UHGV virus genome: UHGV-0465656
DNA length: 39,758 nucleotides
Source of the DNA: a virus
Direction: 5' to 3' (one strand)
The position numbers and the translations under genes were made by a program. Below, one piece after another: positions 13,724-28,395 of this stretch. Within the stretch, counting starts at the first letter, position 1. Each line of letters starts with the position of its first letter. The notes under the pieces are model-generated. The model saw only the letters and a program-made list of their open reading frames with translations, had not been told where the DNA came from and ran no database searches.

Positions 13724-14209
13724 TTATCTAATGTTGCTGCTACTGTTGCATGTGACGGTGTTTCCAAATCCTGAATTGCAGTTTGTATATGTGTCAACGC
13801 GTGTTGGGTAAGGTTGAGTTATAACAGGCTGGCGCGCTTTTTGCTCGATCGCTTGCATTGTGTTTACAGCCTGATAATTCAATAAAGCCTGCTGGAATGC
13901 TTGGCTTTGCGCTATTTGTTGGGCTTGTTCTTGGCTTTGTAATTGAACATAAAGATTCTGAAGCTCAAGTCTTGCCTGTGCGTCACTTATCTTGCCTTCA
14001 TCGACACCTTGCCCGAGCATCTTCGCAGCAAGGACATACAGCTTAGGTGTTGGTGCTGATGCCATGCGTGAGTCGTTCTTCACGCTGGCATCAAGGCAAT
14101 TAGCCATATCACTAAGCTTTGGATAGCGTTGTTCGCAACTTGCTTGGTAGTCACTTACTTTTGCGCATCCAGCCAGCAGAAGCGGGATAATTAACAGTGA
14201 TTTTTTCAT
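13724..14209 (-). CDS. Lipoprotein (signal peptide + lipobox LLAGC), Q-rich coiled-coil, unknown function
   Basis: MKKSLLIIPLLLAGCAK..; last gene of the mnt operon; convergent with the ejection-protein gene stop 2 bp away. Confidence 0.7.
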   Translation of the reverse strand: MKKSLLIIPLLLAGCAKVSDYQASCEQRYPKLSDMANCLDASVKNDSRMASAPTPKLYVLAAKMLGQGVDEGKISDAQARLELQNLYVQLQSQEQAQQIAQSQAFQQALLNYQAVNTMQAIEQKARQPVITQPYPTRVDTYTNCNSGFGNTVTCNSSSNIR

Positions 14210-14213
14210 ATGG

Positions 14214-14459
14214 TTAACTCTCCTTAGTTTTGCTCATGATCCCATTCATGTCTTTTGGTAGATACTTATGAATTGGCCAATCCATGAACGCAAGTGCTAG
14301 CCACGCAACCACGTTGAATCCAGGGATTGTTAAACATACCGCCATCTTCCAGTCAAAACCAGCTTTCTTAGATATTTTTAAAGCAGGTATAAAAAAGATG
14401 AAAACGAAAAAAATCACCATAATAATCAATGATAATGGCGACCCTTGTTGTTGCTCCAT
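14214..14459 (-). CDS. Small membrane protein (two predicted TM helices), unknown function
   Basis: Hydrophobic stretches LSLIIMVIFFVFIFFIPAL and VVAWLALAFMDW; AT-rich; immediately follows mnt. Confidence 0.6.
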   Translation of the reverse strand: MEQQQGSPLSLIIMVIFFVFIFFIPALKISKKAGFDWKMAVCLTIPGFNVVAWLALAFMDWPIHKYLPKDMNGIMSKTKES

Positions 14460-14461
14460 GG

Positions 14462-14704
14462 TTATCCTCCATCTCTTACACGTTTTAACACATCAATAGC
14501 TACATCAAACGCCTCTTGCTCAGACTTTGTCAGGATTCGACTACTTGAAGGTATTAGCTGCCCTTTATGAATTTTTATCCATAGTTCGATAGCTGAAATA
14601 ATCTCTGCGTTTATCGAGCGGCGATTTGTTGCAGCAATATGCGTAAGTTGCTGTTTTATCTCATCAGGCATTCTTACGTTGAATTGTGGATCATTTCTAG
14701 CCAC
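14462..14704 (-). CDS. mnt: Mnt-like ribbon-helix-helix repressor (GTG start)
   Basis: (M)ARNDPQFNVRMPDEIKQQL..NRRSINAEII resembles recalled P22 Mnt; AGGAG 6 nt upstream of GTG. Confidence 0.8.
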   Translation of the reverse strand: MARNDPQFNVRMPDEIKQQLTHIAATNRRSINAEIISAIELWIKIHKGQLIPSSSRILTKSEQEAFDVAIDVLKRVRDGG

Positions 14705-14723
14705 GTCGTTCTCCTTTTGTTTG

Positions 14724-14766
14724 TTGACATGCTAGAACGGTAGTAGTACACTTTCAATAGTAGTAC
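14724..14766 (+). promoter_or_regulatory. Pant-like promoter (-35 TTGACA 14724..14729, 17-bp spacer, -10 TACACT 14747..14752) overlapped by two direct TAGTAGTAC repeats (14741..14749, 14758..14766)
   Basis: Divergent intergenic region between mnt and arc; repeats overlap -10 and start region. Confidence 0.55.
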
Positions 14767-14797
14767 GGTACTATCAACGAGTGAAATGGAGTTGAAT

Positions 14798-14956
14798 ATG
14801 CAAGGTGCAAGAAAAATGCCTCAGTTCAATTTGCGGTGGCCTAAAGAAGTATTGGATTTGGTGCGCAAGGTAGCTGAAGAGAACGGGCGATCTGTTAACT
14901 CTGAGATTTACAAGCGAGTGTTGGACAGCCTGAAGAGAGAAGGGATAACGGTATGA
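14798..14956 (+). CDS. arc: Arc repressor (52 aa)
   Basis: MQGARKMPQFNLRWPKEVLDLVRKVAEENGRSVNSEIYKRVLDSLKREGITV, near-identical to recalled P22 Arc; below ORF-track size cutoff. Confidence 0.9.
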   Translation: MQGARKMPQFNLRWPKEVLDLVRKVAEENGRSVNSEIYKRVLDSLKREGITV

Positions 14957-15174
14957 GGTTTATTGAGGTTGATGAGATTGGCTATGAGAATGCACTTGGT
15001 AGAGGTAAATCTTTAGTTAACATTGATGGCATTGAATCGATAAGGAGTGGTGAATTTACGGAGATCAGAATGATGTCAGGCGGAATCATTCCTTGCCGTG
15101 ACTCAGTAGAGTCAATCAAATCAAAAATGAGTGGTCAGTGGCTTTATAGCTACAGTGACTTACAAAAACAGTGA
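14953..15174 (+). CDS. Hypothetical protein (73 aa) between arc and ant
   Basis: ATGA overlap with arc stop; no recognisable motif. Confidence 0.4.
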   Translation: MRFIEVDEIGYENALGRGKSLVNIDGIESIRSGEFTEIRMMSGGIIPCRDSVESIKSKMSGQWLYSYSDLQKQ

Positions 15175-15204
15175 AGCCCCAACTGCGGTAACAGTCAGGG
15201 CTTC
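15173..15204 (-). terminator. Candidate terminator hairpin for an antisense (sar-like) RNA in the orf73-ant junction
   Basis: Stem GAAGCCC/GGGCTTC with inner ACTG/CAGT; on minus strand followed by ACUGUUUUUG. Confidence 0.3.
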
Positions 15205-15236
15205 GGTATCAACAAAACTTACGAGGTATTATTGAT

Positions 15237-16127
15237 ATGTCAAGCTTAGCAAAGTCAACTGTAAATTGCACTAATAGCATCATCATTTCCGACGTCAAGA
15301 TTCATATGGATTCAGAGGGGCGTTACTCGCTTAATGACCTTCATGTAGCGTCTGGGAAGGAGGAAAAACATCAGCCAGCTTTCTTCATGCGTAGAAATGA
15401 AACTATTGAATTGATTAATGAAATTTTTAATTCTGCGAATATGCAGAATAAGAATCCCGTCATTTCTAAGAAAGGTCGATATGGTGGAACCTATGTGTGC
15501 AAGGAGCTTGTTTACTCCTACGCCATGTGGATTAGCGCAGCATTTGCGCTGAAGGTTATCCGTGCATATGACGCAATGGTTACTGCCACACAGGAGAGGA
15601 AGACTATTGGCGGTAAAACTTCAGTAGCTGAACGCACACCGCTACGCGATGCAGTAAACATGCTGGTAGGAAAGAAAGGACTTCGCTATGACGATGCATA
15701 CAATATGGTTCATCAGCGTTTTGGTATTGACAGCATTGATGAACTTTCAATTGAACAAATCCCGCTGGCCGTAGAGTACATCCACAGGGTAGTGCTTGAA
15801 GGTGAGTTCATCGGCAAACAAGAGAAGAAAGCAAACGAGCTTTCTGCAAAAGAAGCAAACAGCCTTGTATGGTTATGGGATTATGCCAACCGTTCACAGG
15901 CATTATTCCGCGAACTGTATCCGGCGCTAAAACAAATTCAATCGAACTATTCCGGCAGATGCTACGACTACGGTCATGAATTCTCGTATGTTATCGGAAT
16001 GGCGAGAGACGTTTTAATCAATCACACACGAGATGTTGATATTAATGAGCCAGACGGACCAACGAATCTTTCCGCATGGATGAGACTTAAGAATAAAGAA
16101 TTACCTCCTTCAGTACATAACTACTGA
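15237..16127 (+). CDS. Antirepressor-like protein with KilA-N-type N-terminal domain
   Basis: Position after arc as P22 ant; 296 aa; N-terminal [33 protein letters not shown]. Confidence 0.6.
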
Positions 16128-16146
16128 CAGATAACCAACGCAACGA

Positions 16147-16170
16147 CCCAGCTTCGGCTGGGTTTTTTTA
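16147..16170 (+). terminator. Rho-independent terminator (CCCAGC-TTCG-GCTGGG + T7)
   Basis: Perfect stem, TTCG tetraloop, TTTTTTTA; downstream of ant-like gene. Confidence 0.8.
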
Positions 16171-16227
16171 TGCCCAAAATTCACCGTAGCCACGCTGCGG
16201 CGATTCCTTGCATCTGGAGCAAATTAA

Positions 16228-18144
16228 ATGACAGACATTACAGCTAATGTGATTGTATCGATGCCTTCGCAACTCTTCACTATGGCTCGTTCTTTTAAAG
16301 CCGTAGCCAATGGAAAAATTTATATCGGTAAAATTGACACTGACCCGGTAAATCCCGAAAACCAGATTCAGGTTTATGTGGAGAACGAAGACGGCTCTCA
16401 CGTTCCTGTTTCGCAACCAATCATCATTAACGCTGCTGGTTACCCGGTATATAACGGACAGATTGCTAAGTTCGTAACTGTGCAATGCCATTCTATGGCT
16501 GTTTATGATGCGTATGGATCGCAGCAGTTCTATTTCCCTAATGTGCTGAAGTATGACCCTGATCAACTTTCTTCGCGCTTATCATCTGATGATGGTGCTT
16601 CTTATATTTCATTTAAGAAGCCTTATGCTGATGCTGCAACCAGAAAAGCATCTGACTACTTTAATCAGGAAATTAATGTAGATGACTTTGGTGCGTATGG
16701 CGATGCCTACTTATTGAACGGAGAAGATAACCTAAGCAAGCATGACGACACACACGCATTTCAGGCCGCTCTGATTGCTGCGTGGCGTGCAGGTGGTGTT
16801 AAAGTAGTAGCCACTCCGTGGAAAAGCTATTACATCGCCGGTAAAGTTTATGTGTTGGCTTCAGAATCTCCATCTGACATTGAAGAAACTAATTTCCCTA
16901 ATCGTCGGGTGCAAGTGATCGATTTTCAGGGCGCTCGCATCGTAGGCCGCGACGATACTTCCGACGAAAATAACGTATTCATTGAGACTGGTTATATAGC
17001 TTCTAGTGGTGCTATATCTTCTGTATTTGGAAAGTCTGGTGAAGAGTATCTAACCATAGGAACAATAATTCGCAATGCCACACTGATTAATTTCTATCAG
17101 GGGTTACGTTTGCGGAATCATGTATTTGGATGCGAGGTTACAGATATTGTTGGAGTAAATGTCCAGCAGTTGGTTTACACTCAGCGCTGCTTTTACTCTT
17201 TATTTCGCAATCTTCAGTGCAATGGTACATATACTACTGGTCTGCATCGCTATCACTTTACTGATGAATGCAACATTCAGCCATTAGTATCGGTTCACAC
17301 AGGAGAGTGTGATGTAGGTTTTAAGTTTGAAGGTGCGGTAGAGGCACTTACGCTGTTCAACTGTGGTATTGAAAGTTTTCGTACTCACGGTGTTTGGATT
17401 GCAGGTGCATATAACATCAAGTTTGATTCATGCTACATAGAGTCAAACGAAAGCAATGTGTATGGGGTTATAGCAACGAGCGCAAATAACATTACGCTGG
17501 ATAACTGCTGGATTTACGGTAGCAGTATGAAAATGTTTGGTGCATTCGACGACAATACCAACGTAAGAATTATGCCTAATAACCGTATTGGAGGAGGGGC
17601 AGTTTGGTGGGACCTTAACGAAGGGTCTCCGTACAACCTTTCCGACATTCACTGGCAAACAGATATAAAACCAGGCGGTACAACACTACCTGCTGCATCC
17701 GCTAAAGAGGCCAGCACAGTAGACCAGACTATAGTTTTCTACCACCCGGATTTAGGACTTAGTTCAGTTGTAGGGAAAGCCAAACAGACCAGTAAATACC
17801 ACCCGCAGCTTGTTAACGGCAAAATGAGTAACGGTAGCTCTGCTGCACATACAGTTGGCGCAAGTGTCTCTACAGAGGTTTCAGGTTCAGACACTAGAGC
17901 AAAATGGACAACGCAAATACAATACTCTGATACACAGCTTATTTTTTTAGCATTGAAGATAGATCATAACTTGGGGACATGGTTTTGGTTAGGTGTTGTG
18001 GCAGGAGATAAAGCGATGGTTATTTCAACATCTGATGAATCAAAGACTCCGGTTATAAGTAATGAAAATGGGTTTGTCGTAGTAGAGAGTCCGCTTCTTA
18101 TGACGCCAATAAATGTTCATGGTGGAGAAATAAGATTGCTATAG
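16228..18144 (+). CDS. Tailspike protein: conserved P22-type head-binding domain (aa 1-~110) fused to a divergent receptor-binding domain
   Basis: N-terminus [60 protein letters not shown] matches recalled P22 gp9; remainder unlike P22 and AT-richer. Confidence 0.9.

Positions 18145-27042: not shown

Positions 27043-28395
<1,353 letters not shown>

Follow-up and report, generated by a model that had tools for sequence, protein, structure and literature searches.

The region at 14705–14797 of the window (the whole stretch of viral DNA analysed, 39,758 nucleotides of UHGV virus genome UHGV-0465656) probably holds the divergent Pant and Pmnt promoters, with their operators, of a complete immI module of the P22 type. 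As judged from sequence comparison, both operators probably belong to a second specificity allele, here named the 'Emek type' for Salmonella phage vB_SemP_Emek, in which the module also occurs. The reading draws on features observed directly in the sequence, on their positional equivalence to P22, on conservation and on the co-variation of proteins and operators across related loci. Most likely, this is a textbook system in a version with a second specificity and not a new kind of system, and the window allele would be heteroimmune to the immI of P22. Arc and Mnt of P22 are textbook models of DNA recognition by beta-sheets; to our knowledge, only the P22 operators have been studied.

Promoters and dyads between mnt and arc

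The control region spans 93 bp between the GTG start of the mnt-like gene (14704, minus strand) and the ATG of arc (14798). Divergent, overlapping sigma-70 promoters were located in this short region at the P22 positions, together with two dyad sites:

14724..14752, plus strand, Pant-equivalent promoter toward arc-ant: −35 TTGACA (14724–29), 17-nt spacer, −10 TACACT (14747–52)
14729..14757, minus strand, Pmnt-equivalent promoter toward mnt: −35 TTGAAA (14757->14752), 17-nt spacer, −10 TAGCAT (14734->14729)
14729..14749, no strand, site 1 (P22 Oarc position): ATGCTAGAACGGTAGTAGTAC; dyad centre G14739; candidate operator of the Arc variant
14741..14749, plus strand, first copy of TAGTAGTAC: right arm of site 1, overlapping the first 3 nt of the Pant −10
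14757..14777, no strand, site 2 (P22 Omnt position): ATAGTAGTACGGTACTATCAA; centre G14767, over the Pant start region; candidate operator of the Mnt variant
14758..14766, plus strand, second copy of TAGTAGTAC: left arm of site 2

The divergent 93-bp arrangement and the TTGACA-17-TACACT promoter had been described in a sequence-only reading of this DNA, and both were confirmed. In the promoter scan, the Pant equivalent scored 10/12, the top match on the plus strand, and it was colinear with the annotated arc/ant promoter of P22. The Pmnt equivalent scored 9/12 and occupied the position of the annotated P22 mnt promoter. Site 1 lies between the −35 and −10 of Pant and covers the −10 of Pmnt. The −10 hexamer of Pant varied at window position 14750, being TACACT in the window, in locus L012 and in E. 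coli 203740 and TACGCT in Emek, N7 and most other relatives. This single-base difference could alter promoter strength.

The same reading had noted two direct repeats and a near-palindrome. The two TAGTAGTAC copies were present exactly, with no further copy in the whole window, and the near-palindrome proved to lie within a perfect palindrome of the 6+1+6 form, TAGTAC-G-GTACTA (14761–14773; script check). This palindrome, centred on 14767, forms the core of site 2, which reads TAGTAGTAC-G-GTACTATCA. Shuffling the 93 bp produced an exact non-overlapping 9-mer repeat 1.2% of the time, and 3.2% of the 93-bp segments of the same genome contained one. A 6+1+6 palindrome was obtained in 2.3% of shuffles, and the whole window contained 15 of them. 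By themselves, repeat and palindrome are only moderately unusual; their weight comes from position and conservation. Elsewhere in the window, CAGTACGGAACTA at 28363–28375 matched the core palindrome of site 2 with two mismatches, which is within chance expectation for the window.

The region was aligned with the annotated P22 record BK000583 (Oarc at 14798–14818, Omnt at 14822–14844). From the −35 through the second operator, the alignment was ungapped, with the same spacing and colinear operator positions. The sequences at the operator positions were not the same: site 1 shared 12/21 positions with P22 Oarc (ATGATAGAAGCACTCTACTAT) and site 2 shared 9/21 with P22 Omnt (ATAGGTCCACGGTGGACCTGT). 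In the alignment, identity to P22 was 55% in site 1 and 43% in site 2, against 81% in arc codons 8–53. Besides an identical −35, the window retained the left TAGAA of Oarc, together with the outer ATAG and the ACGGT centre of Omnt. At site 1, the centre was ACGGT versus AGCAC in P22 Oarc, and the right TAGA box of Oarc was absent (TACT on the bottom strand), so that ATGATAGAAGCACTCTACTAT with its symmetric TAGA boxes was conserved in position and length but not in sequence. At site 2, the arms read GTAGT versus GGTCC in P22 Omnt, and TAGTAC-G-GTACTA occupied the place of the P22 palindrome. Neither the P22 Oarc core nor the P22 Omnt core (AGGTCCAC-G-GTGGACCT, over the Pant start) had a match at ≤3 mismatches anywhere in the window. 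The canonical operators, which the sequence-only reading had not seen in this region, are therefore indeed absent.

The repressors and the rest of the module

The control region is flanked by a complete module, in which mnt, arc, sar and ant are all intact:

13724–14459, minus strand, two genes downstream of mnt: an 81-aa hydrophobic protein and a 161-aa protein with a lipoprotein-like signal (LLAGC); PHROGs of unknown function
14462..14704, minus strand, mnt-like gene: 80 aa, GTG start, N-terminal ribbon-helix-helix domain, N-terminus MARNDPQFNVRMP
14798..14956, plus strand, arc: 52 aa, GGAG Shine-Dalgarno at 14788–91, Pfam PF03869 at 92 bits
14953..15174, plus strand, orf73: between arc and ant, start overlapping the arc stop (ATGA); PHROG 11805, unknown function
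15170..15235, minus strand, sar antisense RNA: Rfam RF00262, 62.8 bits against a gathering score of 43, aligned with P22 sar
15237..16127, plus strand, ant: 296 aa, KilA-N (PF04383) and P22 antirepressor C-terminal domain (PF10548, P22_AR_C, 101 bits)

The module shares with P22 immI the plan of mnt diverging from arc across Pmnt/Pant, site 1 and site 2, with sar and ant beyond arc. It differs from P22 in having orf73 between arc and ant and a KilA-N domain at the N-terminus of ant, where the P22 antirepressor has its own domain type.

The sequence-only reading considered both repressors close to those of P22, which holds for Arc but not for Mnt. Arc was 79% identical to P22 Arc (PDB 1ARR/1PAR; PF03869), with conserved helices and an identical beta-strand (PQFNLRW, including the Gln9/Asn11/Arg13 signature). 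Three of its first five residues differed, the arm reading MQGARKM in the window and MKGMSKM in P22 (K2Q, M4A, S5R). Since the beta-strand is identical yet the right TAGA box is missing, the arm changes would have to carry the whole specificity shift. Mnt was only 32% identical to P22 Mnt overall, and BLASTP aligned residues 1–40 only (45%). Consistently with this, Pfam PF03869 matched residues 2–39 (47 bits), and the best solved structure, 1MNT, matched residues 1–39 only (E=1e-5). The proteins share the N-terminal domain Ala-Arg-x-Asp-Pro-x-Phe-Asn-x-Arg-Met-Pro, a gene divergent from arc and a putative ACGGT-centred operator that covers the Pant start. Within the N-terminus (ARNDPQFNVRMP versus ARDDPHFNFRMP in P22), His6 was replaced by Gln and Phe9 by Val, and Arg2, Asn8 and Arg10 were kept. 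Beyond residue 40, the C-terminal half of Mnt had no detectable similarity to the P22 tetramerisation domain. A single-sequence AlphaFold model of low confidence (pLDDT 54) suggested two ribbon-helix-helix helices and a C-terminal helix at 60–78.

The residues that contact DNA are Arg2, His6, Asn8 and Arg10 in Mnt, and the N-terminal arm with Gln9, Asn11 and Arg13 in Arc. Knight and Sauer reportedly showed in 1989 that the N-terminal residues of Arc and Mnt set which operator is bound. With S5R, Arc has an Arg in register with Arg2 of Mnt; the change goes together with a Mnt-like ACGGT centre at site 1. We infer that this Arg (Arc 5/Mnt 2) reads the central guanines of the site, which fits the biochemistry of Mnt Arg2.

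Mnt homologues, P22 Mnt included, are called 'partition protein ATPase' in RefSeq (NC_018275, NC_002371 and others) and in PHROG 2685/795. The name looks like a propagated misannotation, because an 80-aa ribbon-helix-helix repressor cannot be an ATPase.

Downstream of arc, orf73 matched no Pfam family. It was present in Emek and E. coli 203740 and missing from N7, ETEC1703 and E2865, in which arc is followed directly by sar and ant. The sar terminator hairpin was found at 15204->15173 (terminator scan), and sar ends beside the ribosome-binding site and start codon of ant. The sar body and terminator were well conserved. The 5' coding region of ant, which contains Psar in P22, was different here, and a simple promoter scan detected no minus-strand promoter for sar at 15236–15275. 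The two genes at 13724–14459 may be prophage-expressed cargo transcribed from Pmnt, because they are located where P22 has orf59a/hkcC/sieA.

Phage Emek was 99.2% identical to the window over mnt–arc and 93.8% identical over about 14245–16570. Outside the latter interval, the window between 11000 and 19000 (DNA-transfer and tailspike regions) was closer to the E. coli phages vB_EcoP-611R6, Dewey and CUS-3. The possibility that the window is phage Emek itself was rejected, as the match was limited to about 14245–16570. With flanks nearer to E. coli P22-like phages than to Emek, the window is best described as a mosaic Lederbergvirus-type genome.

Co-variation of operators and repressor N-termini

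Related loci were collected from IMG/VR with Arc (best 80 of 163) and with Mnt (best 80 of 382) and from species-representative genomes, and their control regions were read by script. The scan of species-representative genomes with Arc yielded three loci (Pectobacterium, Pluralibacter and one unrelated). The following operator and repressor types were distinguished, several of which share one geometry:

Type A (P22): Oarc ATGATAGAAGCACTCTACTAT; Omnt ..AGGTCCAC(G/C)GTGGACCT..; Arc arm MKGMSK; Mnt ARDDPHFNFR
Type B (this window, Emek type): Oarc ATGCTAGAACGGTAGTAGTAC; Omnt ATAGTAGTACGGT(A/G)CTATCA; Arc arm MQGARK; Mnt ARNDPQFNVR
Type C (including a Pectobacterium prophage): Oarc ATGATAGGAC(C/G)ATG(G/C)TA(T/C)TAT; Omnt of the P22 type; Arc arm MKGASK; Mnt of the P22 type
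Type D: Oarc AGTCTATAACGGTGATAGTAC; Omnt TTGAACCAC(G/C)GTGGTTC; Arc arm MQGARK; Mnt SREDPQFKLR
Type E: Oarc ATGGTAGAACGGTAATATTAC; Omnt ATCGTAGTACGGTGCTATCAT; Arc arm MQGARN; Mnt ARDDPQFNVR
Group 3: Oarc ATACTATTACGGTG(A/G)TAT; Omnt AAGACCACGGTGGTCT; Arc arm MKGART; Mnt ARDDPQFNLR

Among the loci listed, with approximately 43 distinct combinations, Arg5-type Arc arms (QGAR, KGAR, KDAR) occurred with an ACGGT-centred site 1 in 19/19 cases, and Ser5 arms (KGMS, KGAS) occurred with AGCAC or AC(C/G)AT centres. The window-type Arc arm was found only beside ACGGT-centred sites in this set. In the same loci, the Mnt N-terminus was paired with the arms of site 2: PHFNFR with GGTCC or AGTCC, PQFNVR with GTAGT (TAGTAC-type), PQFKLR with GAACC and PQFNLR with AGACC. 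An explanation of the new arms by His6 -> Gln was found insufficient: PQFNLR relatives, with Gln6, Asn8 and Arg10 but Leu9, have AGACCAC and not TAGTAC.

The order along the DNA is mnt, site 1, site 2, arc, and the putative site of each protein is thus the one farther from its own gene. Read in this order, type C was P22, C, P22, C (the Mnt and Omnt of P22, but another Arc arm and site 1), and type D was D, B-like, D, B (site 1 and Arc arm resembling those of Emek, but another Mnt and site 2). Because the pairs interleave along the DNA, hitch-hiking or simple linkage of adjacent DNA is hard to square with the pairing, and the comparison argues for protein-operator co-variation. Two further comparisons bear on the individual pairs. 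The Arc proteins of loci L019 and L009 differed only at residues 2, 4 and 5 and stood beside P22-type and Emek-type operators, respectively. Locus L113 carried the Mnt type of the window without arc and retained only the site-2-type palindrome, site 1 being replaced. It can be regarded as a natural deletion test, which supports the pairing of Mnt with site 2.

In Emek-type relatives, 14724–14777 was nearly invariant and both leaders varied; the class of site 1 was conserved among relatives with differing flanks. Locus L109, with unrelated flanks, kept the block, and at site 2 its palindrome, TGGTAGTAC-G-GTACTACCA, is perfect over 19 bp. Both operators and both repressor N-termini therefore differ in step across many loci, which lends comparative support to the altered operator specificity that the sequence-only reading had suggested. 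The co-variation comes from only about 5–6 evolutionary types, and the number of independent switches behind it is accordingly small.

Beyond immI, the Mnt-type N-terminus M(A/S)RxDP(Q/H) was fused to many unrelated C-terminal domains (79–133 aa) in viral contigs (loci L114–L171). AC-(G/C)-GT-centred palindromes were always present in the promoter region of these repressors (e.g. L124, L140), upstream of position 901, often in two to three copies. Their arms tracked residues 6–9 among the loci listed: His6/Arg8 with ACGCAC, Gln6/Lys8 with GAACCAC and PQ(V/M)N(M/I)R with TAG(C/T)AC. In locus L070 (IMG/VR_UViG_2534681875_000018), upstream of arc at 1201, a P22-type Omnt was apparently split by an insertion of approximately 30 bp, with CCACCGTGGA on either side.

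The Emek-type region was detected in 74 of 5426 complete E. coli genomes, and the P22 type in 173 of the 5426. It also occurred in four phage records (two Emek records, N7 and HZ41). The records examined contained no operator annotation of the Emek-type region, and a literature search for the operator variant, Emek and the Mnt contact residues returned nothing specific. The ε34 genome paper described an 'ant moron' in rapid flux and stated that the P22 version of the region is the only one to have been analysed (PMC2629481).

Regulation, competing explanations and related systems

Established P22 immI biology, as summarised in PMC2629481 and PMC8022706, suggests how the variant module would operate; the assignment of each protein to its site and the regulatory outcome are taken from P22 by analogy. 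In the lysogen, variant Mnt expressed from Pmnt would bind site 2 as a dimer of dimers, blocking arc-ant transcription and freeing the overlapping Pmnt. After infection, Pant would fire, and variant Arc, made early, would accumulate, bind site 1 and close both promoters. The sar RNA would damp translation of ant. The sequence-only reading had offered a different regulatory logic as an alternative to altered specificity. Promoter geometry, operator positions and spacing were colinear with P22, and arc, sar RNA and ant were present. With the geometry unchanged, the logic is most likely unchanged as well, and the recognised sequences are what has changed; the intact sar RNA and ant likewise make the logic look conserved.

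The sequence-only reading also held that the control region uses the direct repeats, in which case they would be the functional unit, for instance for a tandem or direct-repeat reader such as the P2 C repressor. The two exact 9-mers are 17 bp apart, and a related third, TGCTAGAAC, lies 11 bp upstream in the same orientation. However, the repeat was not kept in relatives with the same genes and architecture (8/9 in L109, 6/9 in L056 and 4/9 in type D), in which both dyads were. The conserved feature is the dyad around ACGGT at both positions, and ribbon-helix-helix repressors of the Arc/Mnt family bind dyads. Control by direct repeats is thus extremely improbable, and the comparison indicates that the TAGTAGTAC copies are arms of two different dyad sites and not a repeat element in its own right. 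A variant with 8-bp or 11-bp phased direct repeats was dropped, as these were not conserved in types D and E but the dyads were. Only slightly more credible, and still very unlikely, is a decaying immI with drifted operators, in which the TAGTAGTAC repeat arose by chance or slippage and the region regulates nothing. The GenBank record of Emek marks ant as possibly defective, the ant region changes rapidly among P22-like phages, some of which have degraded arc and ant genes (PMC2629481), and the repeat alone is a 1–3% event. Against decay, all genes in the window were intact and sar scored above the Rfam gathering score. The promoter-operator block was the most conserved intergenic part across E. 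coli and Salmonella prophages and phages, and the allele's presence in 74 complete E. coli genomes and the perfect palindromes at site 2 (13 bp here, 19 bp in L109) are likewise hard to reconcile with drift.

The main rival to a second specificity allele is cross-recognition, in which Mnt also binds site 1, repressing its own promoter, or Arc binds site 2, or both, so that the logic has changed. Sites 1 and 2 were identical at 14/21 positions, compared with 6/21 for the corresponding P22 operators, and their cores (TAGAACGGTAGTA and TAGTACGGTACTA) differed at only 2 of 13 positions (11/13 shared). Clean discrimination between Arc and Mnt is consequently not guaranteed. In both proteins, the same four candidate base-contacting residues are also in register (Ala-Arg-x-x-Pro-Gln-Phe-Asn-x-Arg), S5R having put an Arg of Arc at the Mnt Arg2 position. 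Arg5-type Arc half-sites are loose (TA-N-N-AC), and the TAGTAC of Mnt fits them. The Mnt-like repressors of L140, L124, L139 and L122 have two to three palindrome copies across a similar promoter region. In contrast, each half of site 1 contains a base never seen at that position in the collected PQFNVR-type Mnt half-sites (A at −3 on the left, C at −4 on the right). Type D combines the same Arc arm with a site 1 of CTATAAC-G-GTGATAG, unlike the Mnt site of that phage (GAACCAC), and L113 keeps Mnt with site 2 only. We consider a changed logic through cross-recognition unlikely. A milder form is a little easier to accept, though still doubtful: both repressors would have converged on Arg, Gln, Asn and Arg contacts and on near-identical operator cores, and might partly cross-bind. 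If cross-binding occurs, Mnt would repress its own promoter via site 1 or Arc could substitute for Mnt at site 2, which would amount to a rewired circuit.

If the Emek type is a second immI specificity, a prophage of either type (P22 or Emek) would leave the antirepressor of the other unrepressed, with consequences for superinfection and for cross-induction of prophages in E. coli and Salmonella. In these natural alleles, changes in a few N-terminal residues accompany changes in the arms and centres of the operators, and the Arc pair of L019 and L009 is ready material on how ribbon-helix-helix arms set specificity. The allele series (P22, Emek, C, D, E and group 3) would provide a readable recognition code for ribbon-helix-helix N-terminal arms, with Arg at Arc arm position 5 or Mnt position 2 specifying an AC-G-GT centre as a candidate element. 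The region is of moderate interest; its value lies chiefly in supplying natural variants for work on ribbon-helix-helix recognition and on cross-talk between prophages.

An experimental parallel is provided by the Arc/Mnt hybrids of Knight and Sauer, in which a short N-terminal segment is said to decide the operator; the natural proteins compared here differ mainly in that segment. Those hybrids were engineered, whereas the types described here are natural alleles. The window Mnt carries an Arc-like Gln, and site 2, its putative operator, is identical at 15/21 positions to the reverse complement of P22 Oarc. At the level of whole modules, the heteroimmune immC alleles of lambdoid phages (lambda, 434, 21 and P22 c2/cro) have homologous repressors and colinear operators of differing specificity, and are exchanged as modules. 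The lambdoid immC repressors are helix-turn-helix proteins of primary immunity, whereas those of the window immI are ribbon-helix-helix proteins of secondary (antirepressor) immunity.
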